Shown: positions 13,354-39,281 of the stretch, one piece after another
Position numbering within the stretch: the first letter of the stretch is position 1
Layout: the number at the start of each line of letters is the position of its first letter
NCBI GenBank assembly: GCA_963827685.1
Contig: CAWHBU010000002.1
Location: 1 to 64,000 of the forward strand
DNA from: an uncultured delta proteobacterium
GTDB taxonomy: Bacteria > Desulfobacterota > BSN033 > UBA1163
Reading direction: 5' to 3'
Length of the DNA stretch: 64,000 nt
Notes under the pieces: generated by a model
The model's input: only the letters and a program-made list of their open reading frames with translations
The model's database searches: none
Told to the model about the DNA's origin: nothing
Translations under genes and position numbers: made by a program

Positions 13354-13553
13354 GAGCCAAATCGTTTATCCTTGACTTTGTATATATTTCACGAAAGTTT
13401 CCTTCTGACCCCAGGCTTTTTTCCTGAAAAAGAAGAAGTATCTGCACCGCACCCTGTGGATTGTTGATTGGAATATATAAATTTTATGAAAATTGGTCAA
13501 CCGAAACTTTCAGGAAGAAAGAGTCAAAGAAGTGGGATGTTTGTTCCACCTAC
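13354..13553 (-). repeat. ~200-bp dispersed repeat, copy 1 (uninterrupted)
   Basis: tttatccttgactttg...ctgaccccaggctttttt...tatctgcaccgc...ggaatata...ggtcaaccgaaactttcag...gagtcaaagaagtggg...ccacctac; matches six other loci. Confidence 0.9.
13472..13500 (-). promoter_or_regulatory. Sigma70-like promoter inside the repeat (also at 15907-15935, 18553-18581, 27870-27898, 33531-33559, 39237-39265)
   Basis: Minus strand TTGACC-N17-TATATT; hexamers and spacer length identical in 6 of 6 copies while spacer bases vary. Confidence 0.65.
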
Positions 13554-13781
13554 AGGTCAATAGTGGGAACCATATTCAGGAATAGAAGATTACGGGTTGA
13601 AATGTAGTATAATGTTCTTGGTGCAAAAGAAGCGCGAAGGGTTTTAACGTTTGTCTTTTGCACCATGTTAGCCGTCCGCTGCAGGCATTCCTAAAATAGA
13701 ACCGTCGCATTTTTTATTTTTTGACGATCTTTAGATGAAGTGATTCCTAATTCTCAATTCCGGCGGTCCCTGTCGCCTCTT

Positions 13782-14114
13782 TCATATTCCAATGTTCGAT
13801 AAGGTATTGCAGATCGAATTGACAATCCCCACGAGCTTAGGATGGGAATTCTCGAACCTTTCCACAGAGGTAGAAAGCCCCTTCAAGGATAGATTGAGAA
13901 GTTGCGGATTCTTCTTCTCACGGATTGCCTCGTGAATTGAGACTTCGGTAAAACCGGTAATACTCAGGGCGTCCTCGGCGTCGGTCTTGGAGAGTTGGGA
14001 AACTTCGGTCTTCAAAGTGGAAAGCAGATCCAGTAATTCCTTCTTTCTTTCGTCATCTAAAGATTTGGCCCTTTTGATTCTCGCTTCAATTTGGTTAATT
14101 GTCTCCTCGACCAT
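13782..14114 (-). CDS. DUF4404-family protein
   Basis: C-terminal SVERFENSHPKLVGIVNSICNTLSNIGI is characteristic; AGGA RBS before MVEET. Confidence 0.7.
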   Translation of the reverse strand: MVEETINQIEARIKRAKSLDDERKKELLDLLSTLKTEVSQLSKTDAEDALSITGFTEVSIHEAIREKKNPQLLNLSLKGLSTSVERFENSHPKLVGIVNSICNTLSNIGI

Positions 14115-14201
14115 ATTTTCATCCTTTCTTCCAGGCACTCAATAAGAGAAACTGATGAGGGTCTCTGGCTCCCTTTCTGCTGCTCTGGGGTCGAATCTTT
14201 A

Positions 14202-15796
14202 CAGTCTGTTGAAAAACTAAGCATTTATCAGCAACCCTGAAGAAAATATTGAGTTCGAAACCTGAAAAGAGTCATCAAACCAAATAATTTAGAAAATGTC
14301 TTTGAAAGAAACGATTCCCCAAGCTGTTGGGCCACCTGGGCTTGCTTTGTGTATCCTCCTTTGGATAACAGCTTTACCATCCTTTTTATATTCTGCGCTG
14401 TCGCCGTCATTAATACCTGTTCTCTGATAAACTTCCGCCTCCGGAATTTAGCCCTCCTCAGTCCCATCCACTCCTTTGCTTCTCCAAATAGCTCCTCAAT
14501 CCTCTTCCTCATCCTCTGCGATATCCGATAAGCCCTTGTTTGATTGATTTGCCTCGCTTGATTGATAAACTCCTCATAAATGTGATAACTGAGTGATCTG
14601 GACCTGTCCCTCGTACACTCCGCCTTCCTCGAACACACTTTGCAATCCTTCGCCCTCGCCCTATAGACATGCTGCTTACTGGGTTTATGAATTCCCCAAT
14701 ATTTCAACTCCTTCCCCGACGGACAGAGAAACCGGTTTTCACCCGGATCAAAGCTAAATTGTTCTATCGAGTAGATCCCTCGATCGTTTTGACTCCGAGA
14801 ATCCATGATTGGAATGTGAGGCTGTACCTTCTCTTTGACCAGTGCATTGATAAATTCTCCCGTGGAGTACCCCTTATCTGCTCCTAAGCTCTCCGGCTTT
14901 ATCCCAAAAGCAAATGGAATCCTTCGTATCTGCTTCAACGCCTTTTCGCAGTCAGTTTTCCGATCTGGTTTTCCCACATCCGCCCCTACGATGATCCGGC
15001 TCCGGTTGTCCATGATATAGGTCACTCCATGATAAAGTTGGGTGTTTGCTTTCAACGATTTCCTTGCCAGACGGGCATCCGGATCGGTCTTGGACCGATG
15101 AGTCCCATTGCTTATTTTCTGACCCCGATGGGGATAGTCGTCCCCAGGCTCCCAAGGCTCTTCTGTTACAGGGTTTTCTCTCTCTAATTTCTCTATGTAT
15201 TCTCCTGTCCCCATGGTCACCACTATTGGTTCTAGACTCTTTAAGGCCGCATTGGCTTGTACATAGGTGCTGTCCACCGTCAGATGCTTTCCTGTTAACA
15301 ACCCCTGAGAGACACATTGATTCACAATCTCGTCAAAGATTCTCTGAAATAGATCGCTCTCTGAAAACCGCTCATGCCGATTCTTGGAGAAGGTCGAATG
15401 ATCTGGCACCTTGTCTTCAAGGTTCAAGCCCACAAACCACCTGTACCCAATGTGCATCTGTACTTCTTCGCATAGGCGACGCTCTGATGTGATTCCATAC
15501 AGATACCCAATTAAAAGCATCCTGAGTAATACCTCCGGATCAATCGATGGACGCCCTGTATGACTGTATAGATGCTTCACTTTGTCCCGAATGAATTTTA
15601 GATCGATATGTCTGTCGATCAATCTTAGAAGATGGTTCTCTGGAACGATATCTTCCATCCGGACATAGTAGAACATGCGCTCACTTCGTGGGTTTTCTCC
15701 TAACAATGGCTCCTCCTTTATTCAAAAGTTGCCATATTCTACCATTGTGATATATTAAAGCAAAGAATTTATTGAATAGAGTTTTTCAACAGACTG
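14202..15796 (-). mobile_element. IS1182-family element type A, copy 1 (1595 bp)
   Basis: Perfect 17-bp IR CAGTCTGTTGAAAAACT; TSD TTTA; three copies with identical transposases. Confidence 0.93.
14228..15706 (-). CDS. IS1182-family transposase (type A)
   Basis: GRPSIDPEVLLRMLLIGYLYGITSERRL, VPDHSTFS, VDST, TDPDARL, ADKGY, C-terminal Cys cluster, RKRIEELFG. Confidence 0.93.
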   Translation of the reverse strand: MLGENPRSERMFYYVRMEDIVPENHLLRLIDRHIDLKFIRDKVKHLYSHTGRPSIDPEVLLRMLLIGYLYGITSERRLCEEVQMHIGYRWFVGLNLEDKVPDHSTFSKNRHERFSESDLFQRIFDEIVNQCVSQGLLTGKHLTVDSTYVQANAALKSLEPIVVTMGTGEYIEKLERENPVTEEPWEPGDDYPHRGQKISNGTHRSKTDPDARLARKSLKANTQLYHGVTYIMDNRSRIIVGADVGKPDRKTDCEKALKQIRRIPFAFGIKPESLGADKGYSTGEFINALVKEKVQPHIPIMDSRSQNDRGIYSIEQFSFDPGENRFLCPSGKELKYWGIHKPSKQHVYRARAKDCKVCSRKAECTRDRSRSLSYHIYEEFINQARQINQTRAYRISQRMRKRIEELFGEAKEWMGLRRAKFRRRKFIREQVLMTATAQNIKRMVKLLSKGGYTKQAQVAQQLGESFLSKTFSKLFGLMTLFRFRTQYFLQGC

Positions 15797-16009
15797 TTTA
15801 TCCTTGACTTTGCCTATATTTCACGAACATTTCCTTATGACCCCAGGCTTTTTTCCCCTGAAAACGAAGAAATATCTGCACCGCCACCCCGTGGATTCCT
15901 GATTGGAATATACATATTTTATGAAAATTGGTCAACCCGAAACTTTCAGAAAGAGGTTGCGGGTAGAAGACTAACTGGGGGGGTTGGTGGTGTTAAACCA
16001 CCACCGGAC

Positions 16010-16038
16010 TTGCAATATATCGAATATCGATATATAAT
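16010..16038 (+). promoter_or_regulatory. higBA promoter with palindromic operator
   Basis: TTGCAA-N17-TATAAT overlapping atatatcga-ata-tcgatatat. Confidence 0.65.
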
Positions 16039-16045
16039 AAAACTG

Positions 16046-16813: not shown

Positions 16814-16868
16814 ATTAACATTAGATACAAACTATTTTATTGGTCTCGCCATTTTTGTCCCATGTCAA

Positions 16869-18463
16869 CAGTCTGTTGAAAAACTAAGCATTTATCAGCA
16901 ACCCTGAAGAAAATATTGAGTTCGAAACCTGAAAAGAGTCATCAAACCAAATAATTTAGAAAATGTCTTTGAAAGAAACGATTCCCCAAGCTGTTGGGCC
17001 ACCTGGGCTTGCTTTGTGTATCCTCCTTTGGATAACAGCTTTACCATCCTTTTTATATTCTGCGCTGTCGCCGTCATTAATACCTGTTCTCTGATAAACT
17101 TCCGCCTCCGGAATTTAGCCCTCCTCAGTCCCATCCACTCCTTTGCTTCTCCAAATAGCTCCTCAATCCTCTTCCTCATCCTCTGCGATATCCGATAAGC
17201 CCTTGTTTGATTGATTTGCCTCGCTTGATTGATAAACTCCTCATAAATGTGATAACTGAGTGATCTGGACCTGTCCCTCGTACACTCCGCCTTCCTCGAA
17301 CACACTTTGCAATCCTTCGCCCTCGCCCTATAGACATGCTGCTTACTGGGTTTATGAATTCCCCAATATTTCAACTCCTTCCCCGACGGACAGAGAAACC
17401 GGTTTTCACCCGGATCAAAGCTAAATTGTTCTATCGAGTAGATCCCTCGATCGTTTTGACTCCGAGAATCCATGATTGGAATGTGAGGCTGTACCTTCTC
17501 TTTGACCAGTGCATTGATAAATTCTCCCGTGGAGTACCCCTTATCTGCTCCTAAGCTCTCCGGCTTTATCCCAAAAGCAAATGGAATCCTTCGTATCTGC
17601 TTCAACGCCTTTTCGCAGTCAGTTTTCCGATCTGGTTTTCCCACATCCGCCCCTACGATGATCCGGCTCCGGTTGTCCATGATATAGGTCACTCCATGAT
17701 AAAGTTGGGTGTTTGCTTTCAACGATTTCCTTGCCAGACGGGCATCCGGATCGGTCTTGGACCGATGAGTCCCATTGCTTATTTTCTGACCCCGATGGGG
17801 ATAGTCGTCCCCAGGCTCCCAAGGCTCTTCTGTTACAGGGTTTTCTCTCTCTAATTTCTCTATGTATTCTCCTGTCCCCATGGTCACCACTATTGGTTCT
17901 AGACTCTTTAAGGCCGCATTGGCTTGTACATAGGTGCTGTCCACCGTCAGATGCTTTCCTGTTAACAACCCCTGAGAGACACATTGATTCACAATCTCGT
18001 CAAAGATTCTCTGAAATAGATCGCTCTCTGAAAACCGCTCATGCCGATTCTTGGAGAAGGTCGAATGATCTGGCACCTTGTCTTCAAGGTTCAAGCCCAC
18101 AAACCACCTGTACCCAATGTGCATCTGTACTTCTTCGCATAGGCGACGCTCTGATGTGATTCCATACAGATACCCAATTAAAAGCATCCTGAGTAATACC
18201 TCCGGATCAATCGATGGACGCCCTGTATGACTGTATAGATGCTTCACTTTGTCCCGAATGAATTTTAGATCGATATGTCTGTCGATCAATCTTAGAAGAT
18301 GGTTCTCTGGAACGATATCTTCCATCCGGACATAGTAGAACATGCGCTCACTTCGTGGGTTTTCTCCTAACAATGGCTCCTCCTTTATTCAAAAGTTGCC
18401 ATATTCTACCATTGTGATATATTAAAGCAAAGAATTTATTGAATAGAGTTTTTCAACAGACTG
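16869..18463 (-). mobile_element. IS1182-family element type A, copy 2
   Basis: Same IRs as copy 1; TSD TCAA. Confidence 0.93.
16895..18373 (-). CDS. IS1182-family transposase (type A)
   Basis: Protein identical to 14228-15706. Confidence 0.93.
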   Translation of the reverse strand: MLGENPRSERMFYYVRMEDIVPENHLLRLIDRHIDLKFIRDKVKHLYSHTGRPSIDPEVLLRMLLIGYLYGITSERRLCEEVQMHIGYRWFVGLNLEDKVPDHSTFSKNRHERFSESDLFQRIFDEIVNQCVSQGLLTGKHLTVDSTYVQANAALKSLEPIVVTMGTGEYIEKLERENPVTEEPWEPGDDYPHRGQKISNGTHRSKTDPDARLARKSLKANTQLYHGVTYIMDNRSRIIVGADVGKPDRKTDCEKALKQIRRIPFAFGIKPESLGADKGYSTGEFINALVKEKVQPHIPIMDSRSQNDRGIYSIEQFSFDPGENRFLCPSGKELKYWGIHKPSKQHVYRARAKDCKVCSRKAECTRDRSRSLSYHIYEEFINQARQINQTRAYRISQRMRKRIEELFGEAKEWMGLRRAKFRRRKFIREQVLMTATAQNIKRMVKLLSKGGYTKQAQVAQQLGESFLSKTFSKLFGLMTLFRFRTQYFLQGC

Positions 18464-19220
18464 TCAAGGGCTGACCCTGTGTTTTTATTGCCAAGCTTTT
18501 TTCGATGAAAACGAAGAAATATCTGCACCGCCACCCTGTGGATTGTGATTGGAATATACATATTTTATGAGAGTTGGTCAACCGAAACTTTCAGAAAGAA
18601 AGAGTCAAAGAAGTGGGCTGTTTGTTACACCTCTTCACCTTTGATAAGAGCGAGGGATGAATGATTATGATAGAAACCATCAATGACGCCGTGGTATGCG
18701 GTCTTCTTTCACTACAATTCTAAAGGCCAGGAGGTACCCTCTCTCCTTTTTACACAGAGAGCTTGACAGCCAACCCCTTTTTCCCGTATATTCAATCCAA
18801 CCCAAGATGAGTTCTGATAAAAAATCCCCGCCAACAATTTGTGCTGAAGGAATTGGGCCCAGATACAGAGGTCAAAGTAACCGCTCCGGCTGGGGAGGTT
18901 AACTTCACTCCAGTCTAATTTCAAATCATGCCTTTCAAGAATTTCACAGACACGAATGGACCATTTCTTTTGAAGATCGCCCACAAAATAATCGGGAAGA
19001 TGACTTAGAAAATGCCATGACTAAGGGTCCTAAACCTTATCAAAAATGGAAGAAACCGAGGGGAGCGCCACTGCCGCGTCCAAGAATTTGGGCGAGCAAG
19101 GGTGCCAGAGGTCGCCTTGTTGCAAACCCACCGAAGAAGAAAGGAGGTCAAATTATTTTGTCAGCGGATAGATGGCTTATTTAAGTAGTATTATCTAAAA
19201 CCAATCAAAGGAGGACTCTC

Positions 19221-25028: not shown

Positions 25029-25038
25029 GATCCCCTCC

Positions 25039-25983: not shown

Positions 25984-26138
25984 GTAAGATGCCCCTCCTC
26001 TTATTTTGTCTGCACTTTGCTCAAAGATCTCCTCAGCATGTTTTCGGTTACGGTTTCCCTTCGCGCAATGCACATGCCAAGAAGAAACCCATGATCCGTT
26101 ACATCCCCAAAGGGTCGGGCTCTGGGGTCGAATCTTTA

Positions 26139-27759: not shown

Positions 27760-28160
27760 TTTATTCTTGACTTTGCCTATATTTCGCAAAAGTTTCCTTC
27801 TGACCCCAGGCTTTTTCTCCATGAAAACGAAGAAATATCTAAACCGCCACCCTGCGGATTCCTGATTGGAATATACATATTTTGTGAGAATTGGTCAACC
27901 GAAACTTTCAGAAAGAAAGAGTCAAAGAAGTGGGCTGTTTGTTACAGATAGAAAGCAAGCATAACTAAGGCTTCAGATAAACTAAGGCGGGGCCATTTCT
28001 GACCCTGCCTCGTGGAATCGTTCTTTGTTACACGAGACTCCTAATTCACGTCAGCCATACGGAAATTTGATGCCATCCTATACTGTATGAAAGAGTTTCC
28101 GTACTTACGCCCTCTGTTCAACAAAAATATCTCCCAAAAGCAATTTGCGGGTTCCGTAAA

Positions 28161-29234
28161 TCAGGATCGCGACTGAGGGGTGCGACGCTCGGTTTCGATC
28201 TTCAAAAGGGTCTCACCAAAGTCCTTGGGGGGAGCTTCCATTCCCGGCCTGGCCATTAATGAGATCGCTTGCTCCGGACAAGTGGTGACACATAATCCAC
28301 AGCCGATGCATTTCTCATCTCTGATCTCGGAGCGTCCATCCCCTTGCTTGATTGCGTCCACTTGACACCGCTCGATGCAGAGACCGCAGTCCAAACACAA
28401 ATCCGGGTCGATTTTGGCCTGGTAATATGATGAAACTACATATTTAGACTTTGGGAGTAGTTTGGCCGCCTTAAGGACGGGGCAACAGCAGGAACAGCAA
28501 CAGCAGATGGATTCCAACTCCTGGGCATTGGTTGGGGAGAGCACCAGGCCGGACTCCTCCGCTAAGTCCAGGATCTTCATGGCTTCATCTGTGGTGATTA
28601 ACCTCCCCAGCTTATTGTCGATATAGAACCGGCCAAACTTCCCGAACCCAAGGCAGGTCTCTTTCGGACGATTGCACTCCTTCCCTAAGAGCTTTTGCTC
28701 TTTACGGCAGATGCATTCCGCCACCGAAATCAAATCCTGCTGTCTGACCAGTTCTCTGATCTTGTTGTAGGGGGCCACACCGGGAAGGGCCTTGACCGCT
28801 GACTCAACCGGAATGACCCGGAGCTGCTTTGTCTTTACGGAAGCTAATGACATACCGAAATAGGGCAAGTACTCCTCAAACATTTGGGAGAATTCGCTGT
28901 CCAGGCTTTTCAGTTGGAACTCATAGATCCCGATCATAAATTGTGAAGCCTTATATTGCACTTGGTCTCCTTGGCGGACTCTGTAAATAAGCCCTTTTTG
29001 AGCCATGTCCTCAAACTTAGAGACCAGTTCGGATTCCCCCCTTCCCATACGAGCCGCGATCTGTGAGAGTTCTTCCGGTTCGTTCCGAAGATTCATGGTC
29101 AGTTCAGCTTCTTCAGGAGTAAAGAGCTTCTTGAGAATCCTTAGTTCAACTCCGGTGGGCGTCGTCGGAAAACCTGTCGGCAAGGTATCCAGAAAACCTC
29201 TAAGCCTTTCGTAAATATCATTGCCCATTTCCAT
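28161..29234 (-). CDS. 4Fe-4S dicluster-binding protein
   Basis: GFPTTPTGVELRILKKLFTPEEA, ECICR, ICCCCSCCC, CLDCGLCIERC, CIGCGLCVTTC. Confidence 0.85.
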   Translation of the reverse strand: MEMGNDIYERLRGFLDTLPTGFPTTPTGVELRILKKLFTPEEAELTMNLRNEPEELSQIAARMGRGESELVSKFEDMAQKGLIYRVRQGDQVQYKASQFMIGIYEFQLKSLDSEFSQMFEEYLPYFGMSLASVKTKQLRVIPVESAVKALPGVAPYNKIRELVRQQDLISVAECICRKEQKLLGKECNRPKETCLGFGKFGRFYIDNKLGRLITTDEAMKILDLAEESGLVLSPTNAQELESICCCCSCCCPVLKAAKLLPKSKYVVSSYYQAKIDPDLCLDCGLCIERCQVDAIKQGDGRSEIRDEKCIGCGLCVTTCPEQAISLMARPGMEAPPKDFGETLLKIETERRTPQSRS

Positions 29235-29492
29235 CCTCCTTCAGGTTTATTGCGGATTATCTAATAAAAGTTTCTCTCCATTTCTTAATTAGATTTCCCA
29301 AAATGGGTAATTCCGGAAGCCATTCGGCCAAATGAGGACGTGGAGGAGAGATGAAACAGGGCCACATCTTCAGATGTCATGAATTTGTCTGATGCTCTTT
29401 TCCGTGTCTCCCCGTGTTCGGGCACTTCCTGGTTCAGAGAATATACTTCTCAGATTTCTATGTCAAACATAAGTTTCAATGTCATATGTTGA

Positions 29493-31113
29493 CGGGCTGT
29501 TGCCCAAATGATACTTGCAACGATTATACATTCGAGCTATAAGCATGGCAGCACAAATCTGGAATGGAGATATTGCCATGATGGGACAACAGACAGGAAT
29601 TCAGCCGAAGATCTTCTATCATCATATGAACCTGGAACAAAGGATTCCCCGGACACACCTTCTGAGAAGGATTCAAGAGCAGATTGACTTTAACTTCATC
29701 TATGCAGAGGTCAGAGACACCTATGGGGGCAACGGGAATGTGTCCATTCCCCCTCCTGTAATCCTGAAGATGATGTTGCTGTTAGTTCTTTACAATGTTC
29801 GATCGGAACGAGAGTTGATGGAAACGATCCCCATGCGTTTAGACTGGCTATGGTTTTTAGGGTACGACATAGACAGCGAGGTGCCGGATCACAGTGTATT
29901 GAGTAAAGCCAGGGCGCGGTGGGGAGTAGAGGCGTTTAGGGGATTTTTTGAGCGAATGGTGTGGCAATGTGTGGAGGCGGGGTTAGTGGACGGCAGAAAG
30001 ATCTTTGTGGATTCGAGCTTGGTGGATGCGGATGCATCGAACAACTCCGTGATCGACACGCGATCGTTGAAGGTTCAACTCCAGGAGGGCTACAAGAAGC
30101 TGGAAGCGCGATTGGAGGAAAAGAGCGAGAGCACGGATTCTTCGAGGAGATACGTCAAAGAGAACAGCCGATACATTTCAACGACCGATCCGGATGCATC
30201 GATTGTGAATCGTGGCAAGCCCAAACTCTCCTATCAGGTTCATCGGGCAGTGGATGAGCGGAGTGAAGTGATCACGGCGATCGAAACGACAACAGGAGAT
30301 GTCAATGAAGCGCATGAGATGATTCCTCTGATAGAGAGCCACCATTTAAATACAGGGGTCAAGGCGGATACGGTGGTGGCCGACAGCAAATACGGGACGA
30401 TCGAGAACTTTTTGGCGTGTCATGATAGAGGGGTAGAGGCCCACATGCCGGACTTGAGGGAAATTTCATTGAAGCGTACAGAAAAGCAGAATATCTTTGG
30501 GGAAGAGCGGTTTGAGTATGATCGGGAGAGTGACACCTATCTTTGTCCAGCTGGGCATCGGTTGAAGCCTAGATCATTACATATGAGTCGGCAAAGTAGA
30601 GATTACGCTGCACCCAAGAAGATTTGTGCAGCATGTGACTTAAGAGAGCAGTGTACCAAGAACAAGTCGGGTCGGACAATTAAGCGACATCTGAGGCAGG
30701 AAGATCTAGACAGGATGCGAGAGGCGAGTCGATCGGCCAAAGCGAAGCGGGATATCAAAGTGAGGCAGCATTTGATGGAGCGTTCCTATGCCAGAGGGAC
30801 GCGGTATGGATATGACCGGGCACGATGGAGAGGGCTTTGGCGGGTGCAGATACAGGAATACCTGATCTCTGCTGTCCAGAACATTGAGGTTTTGCTGAGG
30901 TATGGATCTTACCTAAAGAGAAGTCCATCGGTAATGATGGAGCAGATCAAAGGGGCTGTGACAAGGGAGATAAGGTCTTTTTCAGATTTTAAGGAGCTGA
31001 TGAGCTTTAAAATTGGCCAAATGGTGCTATTTGGTTCTATTTACCCCCGGCTATCATTCATCGAAACTTAAATTTTCAGATATTTTTGAATTGGGCTTTT
31101 GAGCAACAGGCCG
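29493..31113 (+). mobile_element. IS1182-family element type B, copy 2
   Basis: Type B IRs; TSD TTGA; adjacent gacctgccccc. Confidence 0.92.
29578..31071 (+). CDS. IS1182-family transposase (type B)
   Basis: Same protein as 26181-27674. Confidence 0.92.
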   Translation: MMGQQTGIQPKIFYHHMNLEQRIPRTHLLRRIQEQIDFNFIYAEVRDTYGGNGNVSIPPPVILKMMLLLVLYNVRSERELMETIPMRLDWLWFLGYDIDSEVPDHSVLSKARARWGVEAFRGFFERMVWQCVEAGLVDGRKIFVDSSLVDADASNNSVIDTRSLKVQLQEGYKKLEARLEEKSESTDSSRRYVKENSRYISTTDPDASIVNRGKPKLSYQVHRAVDERSEVITAIETTTGDVNEAHEMIPLIESHHLNTGVKADTVVADSKYGTIENFLACHDRGVEAHMPDLREISLKRTEKQNIFGEERFEYDRESDTYLCPAGHRLKPRSLHMSRQSRDYAAPKKICAACDLREQCTKNKSGRTIKRHLRQEDLDRMREASRSAKAKRDIKVRQHLMERSYARGTRYGYDRARWRGLWRVQIQEYLISAVQNIEVLLRYGSYLKRSPSVMMEQIKGAVTREIRSFSDFKELMSFKIGQMVLFGSIYPRLSFIET

Positions 31114-31245
31114 TTGAGACCTGCCCCCTATGTCTTCCCCCGGGATAGAAGGAATCAGGTCATCGTCGTCGTGTCATTGCGAGGCGTATAATGCCGTGGC
31201 AATCTCGGTGGTTCGAGTTGTAGGGGCAGACCTTCAGGCCTGCGT
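31114..31245. repeat. Cluster of three REP-like motifs
   Basis: ttgagacctgccccc (GGGG-type); tgtcattgcgaggcgtataatgccgtggcaatc (TGTC-type); gtaggggcagaccttcaggcctgc (GTAG-type). Confidence 0.55.
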
Positions 31246-31290
31246 ACTTTGGACTGCGCCCGAAGAACATTATCGATGACGAAAAGTCGG

Positions 31291-32223
31291 TTATGGCGCC
31301 GGTCTGTCGATGAATCCGGCGTATTCCAGTATCCTGCGTATTGCCGTGTTTAAAACCATTAGTTGCATTTCCATGCCCATACCCATAAAGTCGAATTCGT
31401 TCCTCGACAGGATTTCGGCAGCAGCTTTTTGAACTGTCTCGTCCAAATCTCTTGTCTGTTGGTACATCTCGATAATGCGGTTCCGGAATCTTTCCGTTTG
31501 TCTTAGCCCTTCTTGTAATAATTGCCCAGCCTGGGCGCCGGTGACAGCGCCATAATGCTCTGAGGCAAATATTTCAACTTCGAGACTAGCCAGTCTTGCC
31601 ATTGATTGTTTAAACAGGCCGAAGTGATACTGCGGTCCGGGGAAAAATACTGTATTTTCGTCGTCCGTTGGTGGTGGTGCCGCATCCGCTGGAAACAGAA
31701 CTTTCAACTTAGGGACATACGCGGCAATGGAACACTGGGTATGCCCTGGCACTTCCAGGAAGTGCACGTCTATGCCGTCTCCAAGGTCTATGATGTCTTT
31801 TTCCGTGATGATGCGGTCAACATGGATTCCGTCGAACTTCAAATCTAAGCTCTCATATTCACTTTGCAGTCCCAGCCTGGCAATCGCATACTGATTGGTA
31901 ACAGCGATGAAATTAACCGCCTTCTCCCTGGCAAAGATCCTTTCAGCGTGCGCCGAGGCTAGTATCTGGATATGTGGGAATTTCTTTTTCAAATAAGGCA
32001 CAGCCCCGCAGTGGTCGAAGTGGGAGTGGGAGACCACCAGGTACTTAAGCTTTTTGGGCTCGAAATCAATTTTTGATAACTGTATTTCTAGAGACGGTGC
32101 TATCCAGCTCATTCCACCGCCGATAATCATCATGTCTCTGCCCCGGAGCAGGTACAGGCAATTTTCCCTTGCGCCTAAAAAATCTAACCGGTCGCTGACT
32201 TTTCCCGGCTCTCTAATCCACAT
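31291..32223 (-). CDS. MBL-fold metallo-hydrolase
   Basis: SHSHFDHCG (HxHxDH), PGHT, ADA, EHYG. Confidence 0.88.
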   Translation of the reverse strand: MWIREPGKVSDRLDFLGARENCLYLLRGRDMMIIGGGMSWIAPSLEIQLSKIDFEPKKLKYLVVSHSHFDHCGAVPYLKKKFPHIQILASAHAERIFAREKAVNFIAVTNQYAIARLGLQSEYESLDLKFDGIHVDRIITEKDIIDLGDGIDVHFLEVPGHTQCSIAAYVPKLKVLFPADAAPPPTDDENTVFFPGPQYHFGLFKQSMARLASLEVEIFASEHYGAVTGAQAGQLLQEGLRQTERFRNRIIEMYQQTRDLDETVQKAAAEILSRNEFDFMGMGMEMQLMVLNTAIRRILEYAGFIDRPAP

Positions 32224-32346
32224 GTCAGCTCCTCGTTGTTTCCTAAAGATATCTTGGGGAGGGTTCTTGTAATCTGGTTCAATAACAATTAATACAAACG
32301 TCCTAAATAAAGTGACATAACAGTTTATTTATGTTAATATGTGGGC

Positions 32347-32862
32347 ATGAAAAATCCCACATTAATCTTAGAGCATAAAGAGGCCAATAAAGAGCATTTA
32401 TTAGCATTAGCCGAACAAATATCAGGGGCTTGGATAGGCATAAAGATAGCCGCCTTACTCCTGGTGCTTGAAGGGCAACGTCCGGGATGGATAACCGAGG
32501 TGTTAGGGTTGACCCGGATGAGTTTAAGCCGATGGATTCACGGGGTGAACAAAGACGGCTTAGAGTTCTTAAAATCCAAGCCAAGATCGGGAAGGCCTCC
32601 ACGGTTAGAGACAAAGATTCAAAGGGTGCTGGAGGGACACTTAGAGAAGTCTCCGCGGGAATTTGGTTTAAACCGGACTCAATGGGATGGGCCAACGGTT
32701 GCGATTCATCTGAAACGGTCTTTCGGGATAAACCTGAAGGTGCGGCAAGCCCAACGCTGGATGCATCATTTGGGTTATCGGTTAAAGAGAGCGAGTTATT
32801 CTTATCTTCAAGCACAAAGCCAAGAAGCCCGAAAGTTCCAGCGGGCTTTAAAAAAAACTTGA
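32347..32862 (+). CDS. IS630 transposase OrfA (HTH)
   Basis: KPRSGRPPRL, SPREFGL...W, ends KKT over the A8 run. Confidence 0.85.
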   Translation: MKNPTLILEHKEANKEHLLALAEQISGAWIGIKIAALLLVLEGQRPGWITEVLGLTRMSLSRWIHGVNKDGLEFLKSKPRSGRPPRLETKIQRVLEGHLEKSPREFGLNRTQWDGPTVAIHLKRSFGINLKVRQAQRWMHHLGYRLKRASYSYLQAQSQEARKFQRALKKT

Positions 32863-33385
32863 GTCCCTGGGGCCAAAAGAGACAATTGTATTCCAGGATG
32901 AGACAGGCTTTACGATGCACCCCAGGCTTAGCCGGGGCTGGGCGAAAAAAGGAAAGCGTCTTAAGATTCCCACGACCAGCCAGCATCGTATCCGTTTGAA
33001 TATCTCTGGGTGGGTCAATCCTTTGCTTGGACGCTATGGCATGATTCAGACAAAACGGGGGGATAGAGAAGGGTTTCTCAAACTTTTGCGCCACCTCTAT
33101 GGAAGGCTTAAAGGATATACCATTTGGCTTTATGTCGACAGGGCCCGCTGGCACAGAGGCGATCCCATCGAACAATTTCTTAAAAAACATCCGAGGCTCC
33201 ATATCGAATATTTACCCCCGTATCAACCGGGATTAAACGTGCAAGAACGGATTTGGCGCAGTGTTCGCTATGAATCCACCACCAACCGTTGGTTTGAAAA
33301 CCTTGATAATCTTTGGTCTGTCGTTTGTAAAACAACTCGCTCATGGTCTTGTCAAAAGATTCGTAGGCTATGTAACATTACTTAA
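32855..33385 (+). CDS. IS630 transposase OrfB (DDE_3), reached by frameshift; start approximate
   Basis: FQDETGF upstream of MHP, YVDRARWH, YLPPYQPGLNVQERIW. Confidence 0.85.
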   Translation, partial: KLESLGPKETIVFQDETGFTMHPRLSRGWAKKGKRLKIPTTSQHRIRLNISGWVNPLLGRYGMIQTKRGDREGFLKLLRHLYGRLKGYTIWLYVDRARWHRGDPIEQFLKKHPRLHIEYLPPYQPGLNVQERIWRSVRYESTTNRWFENLDNLWSVVCKTTRSWSCQKIRRLCNIT

Positions 33386-33396
33386 TGCGTTTGTAT

Positions 33397-33612
33397 TAGA
33401 TACAAACTATTTTATTGGTCTCTCCATTTTTGTCCTGTGTCAAGGGCAAACCCCATGTTTTTATTGCCAAGCTTTTTTTCCATGGAAACGAAAAAGTATC
33501 TGCACCGCCACCCCGTGGATTCTTGATTGGAATATATCTATTTTATGAAAATTGGTCAACCGAAACTTTCAGAAAGAAAGAGTCAAAAAAGTGGGCCGTT
33601 TGTTCCACCTAC
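33397..33612 (-). repeat. Dispersed repeat copy 5 (variant B); IS630 inserted at its left edge
   Basis: tagatacaaactattttattggtctc...tgtcaagggcaaacccc...core...ccacctac. Confidence 0.88.
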
Positions 33613-33878
33613 AAATCTTGCTCTGGAACGATTCTGGGATTCAACGATTACGGGTGGAAATCAGGAACTCCAAATGAATAGTTGAGAATCATACCGAAAC
33701 ATTTTCGATGGTATGAAAACAGAAGATCTATAGCAGAAATACGCGCTTGCGGCCGAACCTTCTTGTTAAGTCAAGCCGCCCCTAACTGTGCTGAACGAAA
33801 TTTGACTGGGTAGAAAGTGAGTAACGATGTTGGCTGAAGACTTCACGGGTTCCATTTGCCGAGGAGCGCCAGCGGCGG

Positions 33879-34718
33879 TTATTTGGCCATTGCCGCGGCT
33901 TCCGCAGCGCAATCGCGCAGAGGTTTGAGCCCTTTGGCGCGAACGGCCGCGAGTTCGGCCTTGGCGGCCTCCAGATCAGCACGGAATGTGGGATCGGCAT
34001 GCAGTCGAGCGACAGTGCCTGCTCCCATGAAACGCCCCTCAATCACGTCGCTCTGCCAATGTACGTTGCATATCACACGGTTCTCTCCGAAAGCCCGGCC
34101 CCGTGCGAGGATCACATTGGTCTGCTCCGGGGCAATCTCACTCAGGATGAGCGCCCAGGCCCAGCCGACAGCGGCATGCCCGGAAGGATACGAGCCATTC
34201 TTTATCAAGAGTTTTTCCTCATCCGGTGTGCAGGTGGGTTCCTTGTTCACGACGAACGGACGAGTACGACTGTAATGATTCTTGGCCGTGTAGGTGGAAA
34301 GGCCAGCGTCAGTAAGAGTTCGACGGAGTAGCATGTAGAGATGCGGCACGTCCTGTTCCGTGATCGGGGCGTTCAATGCACAGGAGAACGTACCGGCCGC
34401 CCGTGGAAACATCAGGTTCGCGTCCTCCGTCGCCAGCGTCCAGCGCGGCGTACCGCGCAAAGCCAGACCCTTTCGGCTGACCTCCTCGTCGTATGCCAGA
34501 GCGGCCGAGCCTGCGGCGGGAGGAGGGGGAATCAGGGCAAGGCTATTAGGGAGCGCTTTGGGCGGTAGATAGCCAGCCAGAATGCCCGGACGAATCTCAG
34601 GCACGGCAGCCGGCTGACTTAGCCTGCCGGAACTCGCACAACCCGTGGTGAGAGCAAGGCACGCCAGCACAGCAACCAATGCAAACAAGATAGAACAGTT
34701 TTTCATGATACATCTCAT
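33879..34718 (-). CDS. Class A non-specific acid phosphatase (PAP2, PhoC/PhoN-like), lipoprotein
   Basis: KNHYSRTRP, SYPSGH, RVICNVHWQSD motifs; lipobox-like LTTGC. Confidence 0.9.
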   Translation of the reverse strand: MRCIMKNCSILFALVAVLACLALTTGCASSGRLSQPAAVPEIRPGILAGYLPPKALPNSLALIPPPPAAGSAALAYDEEVSRKGLALRGTPRWTLATEDANLMFPRAAGTFSCALNAPITEQDVPHLYMLLRRTLTDAGLSTYTAKNHYSRTRPFVVNKEPTCTPDEEKLLIKNGSYPSGHAAVGWAWALILSEIAPEQTNVILARGRAFGENRVICNVHWQSDVIEGRFMGAGTVARLHADPTFRADLEAAKAELAAVRAKGLKPLRDCAAEAAAMAK

Positions 34719-34859
34719 TTTCTTTCTCCTTTCTTTGCTCTTCCTTTCAAATGAATTCAAAGACTTTCGGCGTGCTTGCCTAATAATTGGTTCCAAAAAA
34801 CTGTCATTTCTTTCTTGGTTTGAGCAAAATATGCCTCGTGCTTTGGGGTCAAATCTTTA

Positions 34860-36480
34860 CGGGCTGTTGCCCAAATGATACTTGCAACGATTATACATTC
34901 GAGCTATAAGCATGGCAAGACAAATCTGGAATGGAGATATTGCCATGATGGGACAACAGACAGGAATTCAGCCGAAGATCTTCTATCATCATATGAACCT
35001 GGAACAAAGGATTCCCCGGACACACCTTCTGAGAAGGATTCAAGAGCAGATTGACTTTAACTTCATCTATGCAGAGGTCAGAGACACCTATGGGGGCAAC
35101 GGGAATGTGTCCATTCCCCCTCCTGTAATCCTGAAGATGATGTTGCTGTTAGTTCTTTACAATGTTCGATCGGAACGAGAGTTAATGGAAACGATCCCCA
35201 TGCGTTTAGACTGGCTATGGTTTTTAGGGTACGACATAGACAGTGAGGTGCCGGATCACAGTGTTTTGAGTAAAGCCAGGGCGCGGTGGGGAGTGGAAGC
35301 GTTTAGGGGGTTCTTTGAGCGAATGGTGTGGCAATGTGTGGAGGCGGGGTTAGTGGACGGCAGAAAGATCTTTGTGGATTCGAGCCTGGTGGATGCGGAT
35401 GCATCGAACAACTCCGTGATCGACACGCGATCGTTGAAGGTTCAACTCCAGGAGGGCTACAAGAAGCTGGAAGCACGATTAGAGGAAAAGAGCGAGAGCA
35501 CGGATTCCTCCAGGAGATACGTTAAAGAGAACAGCCGATACATTTCAACGACCGATCCGGATGCATCGATAGTGAATCGTGGCAAGCCCAAACTCTCCTA
35601 TCAGGTACATCGGGCCGTGGATGAGCGGAGTGAAGTGATCACGGCGATCGAGACGACAACAGGAGATGTCAATGAAGCGCATGAGATGATTCCTCTGATA
35701 GAGAGCCACCGTTTAAATACAGGGGTCAAGGCGGATACGGTGGTGGCCGACAGCAAATACGGGACGATCGAGAACTTTTTGGCCTGTCATGATAGAGGAG
35801 TAGAGGCCCACATGCCGGACTTGAGGGAAATTTCATTGAAGCGTACAGAAAAGCAGAATATCTTTGGGGAAGAGCGGTTTGAGTATGATCGGGAGAGTGA
35901 CACCTATCGTTGTCCGGCTGGGCATCGGTTGAAGCCTAGATCATTACATATGAGTCGGCAAAGTAGAGATTACGCTGCACCCAAGAAGATTTGTGCAGCA
36001 TGTGACTTAAGAGAGCAGTGTACTAGAAACAGATCAGGTCGGACAATTAAGCGACATCTGAGGCAGGAAGATCTAGACAGGATGCGAGAAGCGAGTCGAT
36101 CGGCCAAAGCGAAGCGGGATATCAAAGTGAGGCAGCATTTGATGGAGCGTTCCTATGCCAGAGGGACGCGGTATGGATATGACCGGGCACGATGGAGAGG
36201 GCTTTGGCGGGTGCAGATACAGGAATACCTGATCTCTGCTGTCCAGAACATTGAGGTTTTGCTTAGGTACGGATCTTACCTAAAGAGAAGTCCATCGGTG
36301 ATGATGGAGCAGATCAAAGGGGCTGTGACAAGGGAGATAAGGTCCTTTTCAGATTTTAAGGAGCTAATGAACTCAAAAATTGGCCGAATGGTGCTATTTG
36401 GTTTTACTTACCCTCGGCTATCATTCATGGAAACTCAAACTGTCAGATATTTTTGAATTGGGCTTTTGAGCAACAGCCCG
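34860..36480 (+). mobile_element. IS1182-family element type B, copy 3
   Basis: Type B IRs; TSD TTTA. Confidence 0.92.
34945..36456 (+). CDS. IS1182-family transposase (type B variant)
   Basis: Near-identical to the other type B copies; several substitutions and a 6-aa longer C-terminus. Confidence 0.92.
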   Translation: MMGQQTGIQPKIFYHHMNLEQRIPRTHLLRRIQEQIDFNFIYAEVRDTYGGNGNVSIPPPVILKMMLLLVLYNVRSERELMETIPMRLDWLWFLGYDIDSEVPDHSVLSKARARWGVEAFRGFFERMVWQCVEAGLVDGRKIFVDSSLVDADASNNSVIDTRSLKVQLQEGYKKLEARLEEKSESTDSSRRYVKENSRYISTTDPDASIVNRGKPKLSYQVHRAVDERSEVITAIETTTGDVNEAHEMIPLIESHRLNTGVKADTVVADSKYGTIENFLACHDRGVEAHMPDLREISLKRTEKQNIFGEERFEYDRESDTYRCPAGHRLKPRSLHMSRQSRDYAAPKKICAACDLREQCTRNRSGRTIKRHLRQEDLDRMREASRSAKAKRDIKVRQHLMERSYARGTRYGYDRARWRGLWRVQIQEYLISAVQNIEVLLRYGSYLKRSPSVMMEQIKGAVTREIRSFSDFKELMNSKIGRMVLFGFTYPRLSFMETQTVRYF

Positions 36481-36571
36481 TTTATCCTTGACTTTGCCTA
36501 TATTTCATGAAAGTTTCCTTCTGCCCCCAGGCTTTTCCCCTCGATTGTCGCCCACACCTTTTCTCTTTATT

Positions 36572-37444
36572 TTAAAAATTATAAATAATGGGAGCATTTA
36601 AAGATACTTGATGAATACTACAATAAGGGTGGCATTTAGCTAAAAAGAGAAAAGAAACCTTTCCTTTCAGCCCTTCCTCCTCGGTCAACGAGTCATAGTT
36701 TCCTCCTCCTTTTGAAATAACCAAGTCCGATACCTCTATCTGCCCCTTCAACTCCTGACTGATCTTTTTCAGAAAGGTGCCAGGTAAAGGCTCATGCATT
36801 CCATTTTCCATAATTTGAGCCACTTTCCCAATGCCCACTGACATAGCATCTTGTATGGTAGCGTCATTCATTATAGGGAGGGTTCTAGTGACAAAAATTA
36901 TCTTTAAATTATACATCTCACGAAGGACCTCGATCAAAAGCTTGTCAAAAACAATCTCACCACAATTATCACCGAGGTATACAAGCCTCCGGGTCTTTTT
37001 TAGCCTCCCCTTTAAACGATTCAAATTTCCTACATCGATGTCAAACTTGCCAAACCTATTGAGTTTTTCGGGTGTTCCCCCTCCTATATCCATCATCGCG
37101 TCTATTGAGTTGCCTGCTATGGTCAATTTAATGGCTTCAAGAAATGGATCACGGCTTTTCAAAACCAACTCTTTCGCAGCAGGATAAATCTCCAATGCCT
37201 TGTTATTCTGTTCCTTCTTTATTCCTTTCATAGGGTCTACTTCTCCTGAAATCTCAAGGATCTTGAACCAGACGTTCTTGATTACCTCGGGTGATGTCAC
37301 CCTCCAGTCTTCTCCTCTAAAATAGTTTAACTTTAATATTTGTTTCATAAATCTTCTAACCTGATTTTCGTCTTTCATTACCAAGTGGGCGATTCCCAAA
37401 GACATCTTTAAAATACAGGGAATACAATCAGGCCATATTTTCAT
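36572..37444 (-). CDS. ARMT1-like/DUF89 damage-control phosphatase
   Basis: DCIPC, AGNSID, YLGDNCGEIVFD, NDAT, ISKGGGNYDSL, AKC. Confidence 0.88.
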   Translation of the reverse strand: MKIWPDCIPCILKMSLGIAHLVMKDENQVRRFMKQILKLNYFRGEDWRVTSPEVIKNVWFKILEISGEVDPMKGIKKEQNNKALEIYPAAKELVLKSRDPFLEAIKLTIAGNSIDAMMDIGGGTPEKLNRFGKFDIDVGNLNRLKGRLKKTRRLVYLGDNCGEIVFDKLLIEVLREMYNLKIIFVTRTLPIMNDATIQDAMSVGIGKVAQIMENGMHEPLPGTFLKKISQELKGQIEVSDLVISKGGGNYDSLTEEEGLKGKVSFLFLAKCHPYCSIHQVSLNAPIIYNF

Positions 37445-37534
37445 GAATACCTTTCCCCATTCTTTAAAAGGAATAAGATTCTAAGTAATTTGTGTTGTTA
37501 AAAGGATGAATGGGTTGCTGGGGTCGAATCTTTA

Positions 37535-39129
37535 CAGTCTGTTGAAAAACTAAGCATTTATCAGCAACCCTGAAGAAAATATTGAGTTCGAAACCTGAAA
37601 AGAGTCATCAAACCAAATAATTTAGAAAATGTCTTTGAAAGAAACGATTCCCCAAGCTGTTGGGCCACCTGGGCTTGCTTTGTGTATCCTCCTTTGGATA
37701 ACAGCTTTACCATCCTTTTTATATTCTGCGCTGTCGCCGTCATTAATACCTGTTCTCTGATAAACTTCCGCCTCCGGAATTTAGCCCTCCTCAGTCCCAT
37801 CCACTCCTTTGCTTCTCCAAATAGCTCCTCAATCCTCTTCCTCATCCTCTGCGATATCCGATAAGCCCTTGTTTGATTGATTTGCCTCGCTTGATTGATA
37901 AACTCCTCATAAATGTGATAACTGAGTGATCTGGACCTGTCCCTCGTACACTCCGCCTTCCTCGAACACACTTTGCAATCCTTCGCCCTCGCCCTATAGA
38001 CATGCTGCTTACTGGGTTTATGAATTCCCCAATATTTCAACTCCTTCCCCGACGGACAGAGAAACCGGTTTTCACCCGGATCAAAGCTAAATTGTTCTAT
38101 CGAGTAGATCCCTCGATCGTTTTGACTCCGAGAATCCATGATTGGAATGTGAGGCTGTACCTTCTCTTTGACCAGTGCATTGATAAATTCTCCCGTGGAG
38201 TACCCCTTATCTGCTCCTAAGCTCTCCGGCTTTATCCCAAAAGCAAATGGAATCCTTCGTATCTGCTTCAACGCCTTTTCGCAGTCAGTTTTCCGATCTG
38301 GTTTTCCCACATCCGCCCCTACGATGATCCGGCTCCGGTTGTCCATGATATAGGTCACTCCATGATAAAGTTGGGTGTTTGCTTTCAACGATTTCCTTGC
38401 CAGACGGGCATCCGGATCGGTCTTGGACCGATGAGTCCCATTGCTTATTTTCTGACCCCGATGGGGATAGTCGTCCCCAGGCTCCCAAGGCTCTTCTGTT
38501 ACAGGGTTTTCTCTCTCTAATTTCTCTATGTATTCTCCTGTCCCCATGGTCACCACTATTGGTTCTAGACTCTTTAAGGCCGCATTGGCTTGTACATAGG
38601 TGCTGTCCACCGTCAGATGCTTTCCTGTTAACAACCCCTGAGAGACACATTGATTCACAATCTCGTCAAAGATTCTCTGAAATAGATCGCTCTCTGAAAA
38701 CCGCTCATGCCGATTCTTGGAGAAGGTCGAATGATCTGGCACCTTGTCTTCAAGGTTCAAGCCCACAAACCACCTGTACCCAATGTGCATCTGTACTTCT
38801 TCGCATAGGCGACGCTCTGATGTGATTCCATACAGATACCCAATTAAAAGCATCCTGAGTAATACCTCCGGATCAATCGATGGACGCCCTGTATGACTGT
38901 ATAGATGCTTCACTTTGTCCCGAATGAATTTTAGATCGATATGTCTGTCGATCAATCTTAGAAGATGGTTCTCTGGAACGATATCTTCCATCCGGACATA
39001 GTAGAACATGCGCTCACTTCGTGGGTTTTCTCCTAACAATGGCTCCTCCTTTATTCAAAAGTTGCCATATTCTACCATTGTGATATATTAAAGCAAAGAA
39101 TTTATTGAATAGAGTTTTTCAACAGACTG
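37535..39129 (-). mobile_element. IS1182-family element type A, copy 3
   Basis: Type A IRs; TSD TTTA. Confidence 0.93.
37561..39039 (-). CDS. IS1182-family transposase (type A)
   Basis: Protein identical to 14228-15706. Confidence 0.93.
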   Translation of the reverse strand: MLGENPRSERMFYYVRMEDIVPENHLLRLIDRHIDLKFIRDKVKHLYSHTGRPSIDPEVLLRMLLIGYLYGITSERRLCEEVQMHIGYRWFVGLNLEDKVPDHSTFSKNRHERFSESDLFQRIFDEIVNQCVSQGLLTGKHLTVDSTYVQANAALKSLEPIVVTMGTGEYIEKLERENPVTEEPWEPGDDYPHRGQKISNGTHRSKTDPDARLARKSLKANTQLYHGVTYIMDNRSRIIVGADVGKPDRKTDCEKALKQIRRIPFAFGIKPESLGADKGYSTGEFINALVKEKVQPHIPIMDSRSQNDRGIYSIEQFSFDPGENRFLCPSGKELKYWGIHKPSKQHVYRARAKDCKVCSRKAECTRDRSRSLSYHIYEEFINQARQINQTRAYRISQRMRKRIEELFGEAKEWMGLRRAKFRRRKFIREQVLMTATAQNIKRMVKLLSKGGYTKQAQVAQQLGESFLSKTFSKLFGLMTLFRFRTQYFLQGC

Positions 39130-39281
39130 TTTATCCTCGACTTTGCCTATATTTCACGAAAGCTTCCTCCTGACCCCAGGCTTTTTCCATGAAAACGAAG
39201 AAATATCTACACACCCACCCTGCGGATTCTGATTGAAATATACATATTTTGTGAAAATTGGTCAACCGAAACCTTCAGAAA

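Follow-up and report, generated by a model that had tools for sequence, protein, structure and literature searches.

A promoter-like repeat and its insertion elements

The stretch of DNA analyzed here, referred to as the window, comprises 64,000 nt of contig CAWHBU010000002.1 (positions 1 to 64,000, forward strand; assembly GCA_963827685.1). A motif search of the window for TTGACC-N17-TATATT returned exactly six matches without any mismatch, all of them on the minus strand (starting at positions 13472, 15907, 18553, 27870, 33531 and 39237), where 0.32 would be expected by chance and six were reached in 0 of 100 shuffles. The hexamers agree with the sigma-70 consensus in 10 of 12 positions and their spacer of 17 bp is likewise that of a sigma-70-type promoter. 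The first-pass annotation of this DNA had described hexamers and 17-bp spacing as unchanged in six core-containing copies of a repeat, had quoted their spacers and had predicted a transcript reading ...ATCCRCRGGGTGGCGGTGCAGAT..., and all of this was borne out. It had also placed a GACCCC arm about 120 nt into the transcript; in uninterrupted copies the arm is indeed found at about +125, whereas in the window it lies beyond inserted elements. On the minus strand, GGGGTC is present about 60-70 nt downstream of the promoter. Across the source genome, nhmmer retrieved 22 matches to the repeat, and 17 of them contain the promoter.

All copies in the window lie on the minus strand, and in five of the six the leader is disrupted by insertion elements. 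Copy 1 (13338..13569, core 13472-13500) has a leader that ends at the target site of an insertion sequence (IS); because fdhD, the gene that comes next, is convergent (12446-13303, plus strand), this copy probably closes the array. The leader is interrupted by the element IS-A in copies 2 (15798..16006, core 15907-15935) and 6 (39131..39332, core 39237-39265) and by IS-B in copy 4 (27761..27963, core 27870-27898). The displaced 3' ends of these leaders were located at about 14182-14200 for copy 2, followed by a DUF4404 gene (13782-14138, minus strand), at about 37515-37533 for copy 6, upstream of a gene for an ARMT1-like phosphatase (36572-37444, minus strand), and at about 26119-26137 for copy 4, upstream of a CoA-transferase gene cluster. 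From about +60 onward, the leader of copy 3 (18465..18649, core 18553-18581) is replaced by the end of another element that was subsequently hit by IS-A, and the leader of copy 5 (33401..33628, core 33531-33559) is replaced by an element bearing an IS630-type DDE_3 open reading frame (32915-33385, plus strand). A promoter-less fragment (36466..36538, minus strand) consists of the 3' part of the leader only and abuts an inverted IS-B. Finally, a second promoter-like repeat core, TTGACA-N17-TATTCT (29438..29466, minus strand), which belongs to a family unrelated to the main repeat, is situated about 200 nt upstream of a Fer4 gene (28161-29234, minus strand). An intact adjacent gene that is now driven by a repeat copy was not found in the window, which holds an IS-riddled remnant of a module array.

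IS-A (1597 bp, perfect terminal inverted repeats) is present three times, always on the minus strand (14201-15797, 16868-18464 and 37534-39130), and encodes a transposase of 492 aa with the domains DUF772/DDE_Tnp_1_6. IS-B (1623 bp; 26138-27760 on the minus strand, 29492-31114 and 34859-36481 on the plus strand) encodes a transposase of 518 aa with the same Pfam make-up. Terminal inverted repeats together with DUF772 and DDE_Tnp_1_6, a domain pair that we take to be the mark of IS1182, assign both elements to this type. They hit the leader because its 3' end holds their palindromic target. As had been noted before, the four elements that follow intact promoters (all three IS-A copies and IS-B at 26138-27760) are co-oriented with them, and the oppositely oriented element, reported at 34860, is the IS-B copy that abuts the promoter-less fragment. 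The idea that the elements exploit the promoter was nevertheless not supported: their palindromic target also occurs away from the repeat and, with IS-A at C8:46189-47785 and a fragment of IS-B at C3:2201-3541 inverted beside intact promoters outside the window, the genome-wide orientation ratio is 4:2, which is not significant.

Conservation extends beyond the promoter hexamers

Conservation was measured on 60 further copies. The spacing between -35 and -10 is 17 bp in all 60, TTGACC is kept in 57 and TATATT in 42, while A-11 and T-7 are present in 60/60. Identity amounts to 0.99 at -35 and 0.94 at -10; it falls to 0.72 farther upstream and to 0.51 within the spacer (positions -15 to -13). 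Indels in the form of heptamer expansions are common a few bases 3' of the -10 hexamer and never occur in the spacer. These values agree with the earlier proposal of selection for promoter function insofar as hexamers and spacing are constrained, but the hexamers are not uniquely conserved: identity is almost as high in the 11 nt preceding -35 (95.5%) and at 14 of the 17 spacer positions (91%). Such conservation outside the hexamers counts against a plain promoter, which does not need it. The core block of about 55 nt, which shows 84-99% identity over the 60 copies and in which the -35 hexamer sits within an imperfect inverted repeat, is constrained by something beyond RNA polymerase contacts. 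The minimal core reaches from about 10 bp upstream of -35 to just past -10 and spans roughly 50 bp; in the usual form, it is preceded by about 50-110 bp and followed by a leader that may reach about 125 nt. The repeat represents one family of a module of 50-250 bp.

Module arrays in related genomes

The repeat is present in 11 of 14 other genomes of the same genus. The record titles of the carrier genomes name Thermodesulfobacteriota, delta proteobacterium or Syntrophales. In same-genus Thermodesulfobacteriota genomes, the module recurs throughout arrays of accessory genes that are unrelated to each other and face one direction. Arrays of 27, 22 and 17 copies occupy one strand each (e.g., 27 copies in 50 kb), with neighboring copies spaced 1-3 kb apart, and all 116 strict cores, distributed over 18 segments, are co-oriented inside their own segment. 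The array genes encode esterases, reductases, beta-lactamase, parts of toxin-antitoxin systems, transporters and regulators; restriction-modification genes are also found within arrays, and the genes downstream of modules fall into unrelated Pfam families. The same arrays are occupied by the second, unrelated promoter family with the core TTGACA-N17-TATTCT. The first sizeable open reading frame downstream is co-oriented with the module in 41 of 53 units and lies on the opposite strand in the other 12, and in some copies a ribosome-binding site and ATG follow immediately. A mobile promoter, one of the two options offered in the first-pass annotation, or a re-used one fits a module that precedes unrelated, mostly co-oriented genes in several genomes. 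Solo copies also occur outside arrays; for one of them (C2:1092624), an empty-site comparison revealed mosaic flanks and the presence of another IS.

A recombinase was found neither in nor beside three arrays examined. A small GIY-YIG gene from the arrays of three genomes was considered as the missing nuclease and rejected; it is not linked to the repeat, since it is present without surrounding repeat in genomes with no or a single match. An HTH-cupin regulator common to two arrays has no close copy in the arrays of the source genome and was dismissed as well. Literature searches for the motif strings or for such arrays in this bacterial group yielded nothing relevant.

Block ends are enriched at module edges

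Arrays of different species have few genes in common, and these are arranged in a different order. The ends of shared blocks fall on module edges in 35 of 152 cases against an expectation of 7.9% (binomial P 7e-9). The edges of the core are sharp: breaks on the left fall at -4 to -21, and those on the right lie between the -10 and the bases just beyond GGGTGGCGG. The module is retained alongside its upstream gene in two shared cassettes; in other pairs it accompanies the downstream gene. Because the modules are alike and a BLAST match from a shared flank continues through the module, the breakpoints do not distinguish homologous from site-specific recombination. Neither a circular intermediate nor a clean pair of "one module" versus "module-gene-module" was found. 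The module marks the joints of gene reshuffling and is very probably not a small RNA gene.

Alternative explanations

A small RNA present in many copies, or a leader RNA resembling a riboswitch, that starts from the promoter and ends near the GACCCC arm might be suspected from the conserved leader of about 125 nt, the strong promoter upstream of it and a possible long-range helix in which CTGGGGTC pairs with GACCCCAG, but we consider this highly improbable. Rfam gave no match at the gathering threshold for the whole window and none at E up to 5 for positions 33250-33900. For 31 leaders, RNAalifold gives a consensus energy of -1.5 kcal/mol and 0 compensatory pairs. The long helix shows pairing in 78.3% of cells compared with 78.7% in shuffles, and a T-run after it is absent. 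Furthermore, only about 46 of 107 copies have the full leader; in the rest, other sequence follows after GGGTGGCGG or after about +77. Given that an Rfam match, a terminator and covariation are all absent and that the 3' junction varies, the discrete RNA of about 120 nt envisaged earlier found no support. Folds of single copies are unremarkable (z -2.1 for a full copy as DNA, z -1.5 for one leader as RNA). Metatranscriptome contigs from four runs cover positions 31200-34850 in a patchy manner; they are short, show 88-99% likeness and, as contigs, give no information on starts, strand or expression, and since some of them cross the -35/-10 region, they may stem from read-through, DNA carry-over or other copies. 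An antisense open reading frame with its start codon in the spacer was also rejected, its ATG being absent in 17 of 55 copies and its length varying from 13 to 80 aa. A MITE with a chance outward promoter, comparable to the Correia elements of Neisseria, would account for the many copies of an element of about 250 bp in intergenic DNA, for the imperfect inverted repeat with GAAAGTTTC and TGACC flanking the promoter and early leader, and for the solo copies. Correia elements, however, have fixed inverted-repeat ends, create a TA duplication and insert in both orientations, whereas both boundaries of the repeat studied here differ from copy to copy, a target-site duplication was not seen and each array shows a single orientation, which is not expected from transposition. 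A matching autonomous element was not found either. Both are multicopy intergenic repeats with a functional-looking promoter (Correia elements are cited as promoter-bearing MITEs in PMC3575422), and we regard a MITE origin of the repeat as improbable.

The arrays also bring integrons to mind. Integron sites are folded palindromes of 57-141 bp with AAC/GTT cores, these triplets being part of the boxes R'' (RYYYAAC) and R' (GTTRRRY), and the module conforms to neither feature: the AAC...GTT core triplets lack conservation in the part that separates the upstream gene from the promoter, where a left arm could be sought, and as single-stranded DNA this part shows no more folding than shuffles do (mean z 0.0, n=8). 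Moreover, the module is 2-4 times longer than attC, and its best-conserved part is the promoter. Clusters of cassettes without nearby integrase (CALINs) nevertheless resemble the arrays in their length, co-orientation, single-gene units, recurring site, rapid gene turnover and toxin-antitoxin genes, as far as they are described by Cury et al. (2016, PMC4889954), where promoters are said to be rare in cassettes. Co-oriented arrays with 1-3 kb spacing and diverse cassette-like genes, along with integron-integrase-like fragments in genomes G000 and G010, could thus be read as a sedentary chromosomal integron with the repeat as its attC site. Yet an integrase next to the array, as in a complete integron, was not found for three arrays, and TIGR02249 (integron integrase) produced partial matches only, away from the arrays and, in G000, from a broken, intI-like sequence split over several frames; we regard the attC assignment as extremely improbable. 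It is rather unlikely, though considerably less so, that the core serves primarily as the site of recombination in a cassette system not yet described, with its recombinase encoded elsewhere, the promoter likeness being a second function or incidental. An integron-like layout of co-oriented arrays, fast gene turnover, the toxin-antitoxin and restriction-modification genes, the sharp core edges, the two cassettes in which the module is kept with its upstream gene, the conservation beyond the hexamers and the inverted repeat around -35 would all suit such a site. On the other hand, the arrays examined lack a recombinase, the junctions occur at several positions instead of one, the module is kept with the downstream gene in other pairs, the sole sequence resembling an integron integrase is a pseudogene in fragments that lies far away from the arrays, and homologous recombination fits the same facts.

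A probable portable promoter module

Taken together, the repeat is probably a portable sigma-70-type promoter module, near-identical copies of which head most genes of long, co-oriented accessory-gene arrays. Judging from its sequence, each copy of the promoter module most likely initiates transcription of the gene on its right-hand side. The 12 of 53 units in which the first sizeable open reading frame has the opposite orientation, and the finding that no copy in the window now drives an intact neighboring gene, count against this reading. As the copies are so alike, they most likely also provide the homology through which blocks of genes may be swapped, lost and gained by ordinary recombination.

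The closest analogue of this promoter module is the promoter-early stem-loop (PeSL) cassettes of T4-type phages (Arbiol et al. 2010, PMC2839356; Comeau et al. 2014, PMC4122927), for which an exchange of gene blocks at the modules, similar to the one we propose for the arrays, has been put forward. PeSLs are short conserved intergenic modules around a strong sigma-70-type promoter, occur as many repeats in the most variable genome regions directly upstream of unrelated, mostly unknown genes, coincide with the differences between related genomes, as module edges do with block ends here, and are proposed to recombine with each other and thereby move genes together with their expression signals. 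Differences are that PeSLs belong to phages and measure about 100 bp, while the module described here resides on a bacterial chromosome, reaches 250 bp, has a long leader and forms arrays that are tens of kilobases long. A stem-loop terminator is a defining part of PeSLs, whereas a conserved hairpin is missing here both upstream (z 0.0, n=8) and in the leader (-1.5 kcal/mol); terminator-like hairpins of upstream genes accompany some copies and lie outside the conserved module. Promoter activity and mini-circles have been shown for PeSLs; for the module, promoter activity is predicted from sequence, and a circular intermediate was not found.

The module also resembles putative mobile promoters (PMPs; Matus-Garcia, Nijveen and van Passel 2012), which the commentary PMC3575422 characterizes by an identity of 80% or more over 50 nt or more in front of non-homologous genes in one genome and its relatives. 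The core stretch of about 55 nt (84-99% identity, 60 copies) upstream of genes from unrelated Pfam families matches this description. Most PMP families are described there as scattered pairs, in contrast to the tens of copies per genome in co-oriented arrays and to the second, unrelated promoter family in the same arrays reported here. The family is also a good test case for the spread of promoters within genomes.

On a more speculative level, which we deem unlikely, the arrays could be an integrase-free platform for gene capture, in which the promoter core doubles as recombination site, each captured gene brings along or is placed behind a strong promoter of its own, at least two promoter families are interchangeable, and a protein binding at the conserved -42 palindrome or at the CAATCAN repeats at the transcription start switches the array or performs the exchange. 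If this were true, the distance-from-promoter problem of integrons would be removed. If the probable reading as a portable promoter module is right, the arrays represent the equivalent in cells of the phage PeSL system, and genetic work in a phylum that is poor in tools would gain the core as a strong promoter ready for use. Each of the array genes, many of which encode detoxification-type enzymes, would sit behind a copy of the same strong promoter and be traded at the promoter copies. Widespread bacteria of anaerobic sediments and peat would then hold tens of unrelated accessory genes ready for expression, and a second route beside integrons would exist for building and expressing a changeable store of genes.

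Distribution and conservation of the promoter-like core

Six exact TTGACC-N17-TATATT sites are present in the window, every one on the minus strand (core starts at 13472, 15907, 18553, 27870, 33531 and 39237), just as the first-pass annotation had placed them, and the spacer variants and downstream sequence of the six copies agree with its description. By chance, 0.32 sites are expected and none of 100 shuffles attained six; the observation is real and well beyond chance. Upon alignment, the six sites proved to be parts of one repeat of about 230 nt. A profile built from these copies located the repeat at 22 places in the 5.2-Mb source genome (G000), 17 of them including the promoter, and most lie in two regions, contig C2 up to 40 kb (inside the window) and contig C8 from 38 to 65 kb, on one strand throughout. 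Matches were obtained in 15 of 30 other genomes searched (same genus: 11 of 14), and a search of a species-level genome collection with a 22-mer from the core gave exact hits in 67 stretches, nearly all of them belonging to MAG records whose titles read Thermodesulfobacteriota, delta proteobacterium or Syntrophales. Single-strand arrays comprise 27 copies in 50 kb (genome G002), 22 in 62 kb (G010) and 17 in 29 kb (G012), and for the 116 strict cores of 18 array segments (seven genomes), every core has the same orientation as the others of its segment.

The first-pass annotation had noted that the hexamers and their spacing are constant while spacer bases differ. Over 60 copies, with the window's six left out, hexamer spacing is always 17 bp, the −35 element is TTGACC in 57 and the −10 element TATATT in 42 or TATACT in 10 copies, and in all −10 variants the second base is A and the sixth T. 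Mean identities of 0.99 (−35) and 0.94 (−10) do exceed the 0.72 found further upstream, but most of the surroundings are conserved nearly as well: identity is 0.955 over the 11 nt upstream of −35, within which lies the palindrome GAAAGTTTC (centred near −42), 0.91 over the first 14 spacer positions, and 0.90 over 7 nt after −10, with only the last three spacer positions falling to 0.51. This comparison shows a block of about 55 bp under extra constraint, beyond what contacts with RNA polymerase alone would explain. A few bases downstream of −10, tandem CAATCAN units vary in number among copies from zero to about seven. Indels thus occur often beside the promoter but never within it, which is what one expects of a working promoter. 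The heptamers lie at the expected transcription start, between −10 and GGGTGGCGG, in copies from genomes G010, G004, G009 and G012 (e.g., in stretches L034, L042 and L087); judged by eye, unit number appears genome-specific, and they could represent either an array that binds protein or a tract prone to slippage.

Module limits and the genes between copies

The first downstream open reading frame of at least 80 amino acids is co-oriented with the core in 41 of 53 units, at a median distance of about 190 nt. On the 3′ side, copies of the repeat end at different points: about 46 of 107 extend to the end of the leader at approximately +125, the others end in clusters just past GGGTGGCGG (about +55) or near +77, and in several shortened copies the ribosome-binding site and start codon of a different gene follow directly. 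As the 5′ limit is variable too, the shortest copy beginning about 10 nt upstream of −35, the constant part is the promoter itself. Many short metatranscriptome contigs match an optional upstream part of the module (window 33606–33737) and diverge to either side of it; in environmental data this part thus behaves like a repeat unit in its own right. At one end of the window's series, fdhD is convergent to copy 13472, which looks like an array end.

The genes between copies are mutually unrelated and encode esterases, a tannase, dienelactone hydrolases, a class A beta-lactamase, metallo-beta-lactamase-fold proteins, nitro- and flavin reductases and molybdoenzymes, besides transporters, regulators, toxin–antitoxin parts and one restriction–modification pair. 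No tyrosine or serine recombinase was found within or adjoining three annotated arrays. A small GIY-YIG protein, 78%–86% identical, is encoded within arrays of three genomes (C8:56799–57110 (−) in G000; stretches L032:16973–17368 and L037:4297–4671) and is found as well, in a different context, in relatives poor in the repeat. A further promoter-like repeat unrelated to the first, TTGACA-N17-TATTCT followed by a conserved part, has seven copies in G000 and none in the control (window 29438–29466 (−); C8:57211–57239, C8:35043–35071 and C8:36611–36639, co-oriented with the arrays; three places on C3); one copy stands directly upstream of the GIY-YIG gene, and one in G010 heads an HTH-cupin gene.

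Modules as joints of reshuffling

Arrays of different species have few genes in common, 0–2 for most pairs, and these stand in differing order. We examined 80 blocks of at least 450 bp common to arrays of different genomes, with 152 internal ends, and counted an end as lying at a module when, in one or both partners, it lay between −45 and +160 relative to a strict core. This applied to 35 of the 152 ends, against 7.9% expected (binomial P = 7e-9); block ends cluster at +40 to +59, and block starts at −20 to −1 and +120 to +179. For a Fer4 gene that G000 and G010 have in common, and for an HTH-cupin gene common to G002 and G010, homology begins a few tens of bases upstream of the start codon, continues across the gene and its 3′ region, takes in the next promoter, and ends at +30 to +58; in other pairs it begins at the left edge of a core and continues into the downstream gene. 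Taken together, the block ends identify the modules as the joints of reshuffling. As all modules are alike, the sequence match passes through them, so that homologous and site-specific exchange look the same here.

Insertion elements in the leaders

The six transposase genes in the window represent two IS1182-type elements, each with DUF772 and DDE_Tnp_1_6 domains (Pfam), and the element ends were located by BLAST and flank inspection: IS-A (1597 bp; 14201–15797, 16868–18464 and 37534–39130) and IS-B (1623 bp; 26138–27760, 29492–31114 and 34859–36481). Four repeat copies in the window are interrupted by these elements, and in three the order promoter, leader, gene is restored when the element is set aside, the genes being DUF4404 (copy 15907), a CoA-transferase cluster (27870) and an ARMT1-like phosphatase (39237). 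For both element types the flanks are symmetric: of 26 flank reads, all carry A at +3 and 21–25 carry GAC at +9 to +11, on either side (all six IS-A copies entered on both strands), which gives the palindromic target GTC-N8/N8-GAC with insertion at its centre. The leader carries this target at its 3′ end, many sites with no relation to the repeat carry it too, and the pattern is the same for copies inside and outside the repeat in G000; the elements thus accumulate in leaders because the leader end holds their target. Being symmetric, it has no effect on element orientation. The first-pass annotation had suggested that the elements may exploit the promoter, being co-oriented with it; genome-wide, four are indeed co-oriented with intact promoters, but two are inverted, and the bias is not significant.

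Other elements were also noted. In copies 18553 and 33531 the leader gives way, from about +60 onward, to an IS630-type (DDE_3) element or to its conserved end, which bears a hairpin (32915–33385 (+) and 33401–33470, at copy 33531); the end sequence also occurs in stretches L062 and L077 and in copies from G010, and in several relatives the element or its end follows the core at differing junction points. G000 also holds many near-identical copies of a further IS, about 1255 bp long and with rve, HTH_21 and rve_3 domains (L005 about 2280–3540, corresponding to C2:1091279–1092542, and at least 14 other places), one of them inside the C8 array (59916–61177).

Nature of the module

The repeat had alternatively been taken for a multicopy sRNA. 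One attractive long-range helix can be drawn in the leader, but it is paired in 78.3% of cells versus 78.7% when shuffled, 371 of 500 shuffles reach its value, and it has no trailing T-run; moreover, Rfam gave no match, the consensus fold of 31 complete leaders amounts to −1.5 kcal/mol with zero compensatory changes, and the 3′ end is variable. An sRNA is accordingly very unlikely. Integron arrays are similar in layout only, and an integron site is very unlikely too. The sequence between upstream gene and promoter, present only in some copies, lacks conserved AAC/GTT triplets and folds like shuffles (mean z 0.0, n = 8), and promoters are rare inside integron cassettes (PMC4889954). An integron-integrase model matched strongly but only in part (191 bits over the C-terminal 40%) and far from the arrays (G000:C3:782919–783275, L023 1492–2217; G010:C1:720402–721045); in G000 the match is broken across several short frames and looks like a decayed intI. 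A MITE is disfavoured by the variable ends, by the lack of any target duplication and by the strict co-orientation.

For this bacterial group, our literature search retrieved no account of the repeat or of comparable arrays. The repeat falls under the working definition of putative mobile promoters (PMC3575422). Among described systems, the PeSL cassettes of T4-type phages come closest; they combine a conserved strong sigma-70 promoter with a stem-loop, number about 50 per genome, lie in hyperplastic regions, and recombine with one another to shuffle ORFans and produce mini-circles (PMC2839356; PMC4122927). In our best reading, which we hold with somewhat more confidence than doubt, the repeat would be a portable module of putative promoter plus leader, standing at the head of the units in hypervariable arrays of accessory genes and linking these units together.
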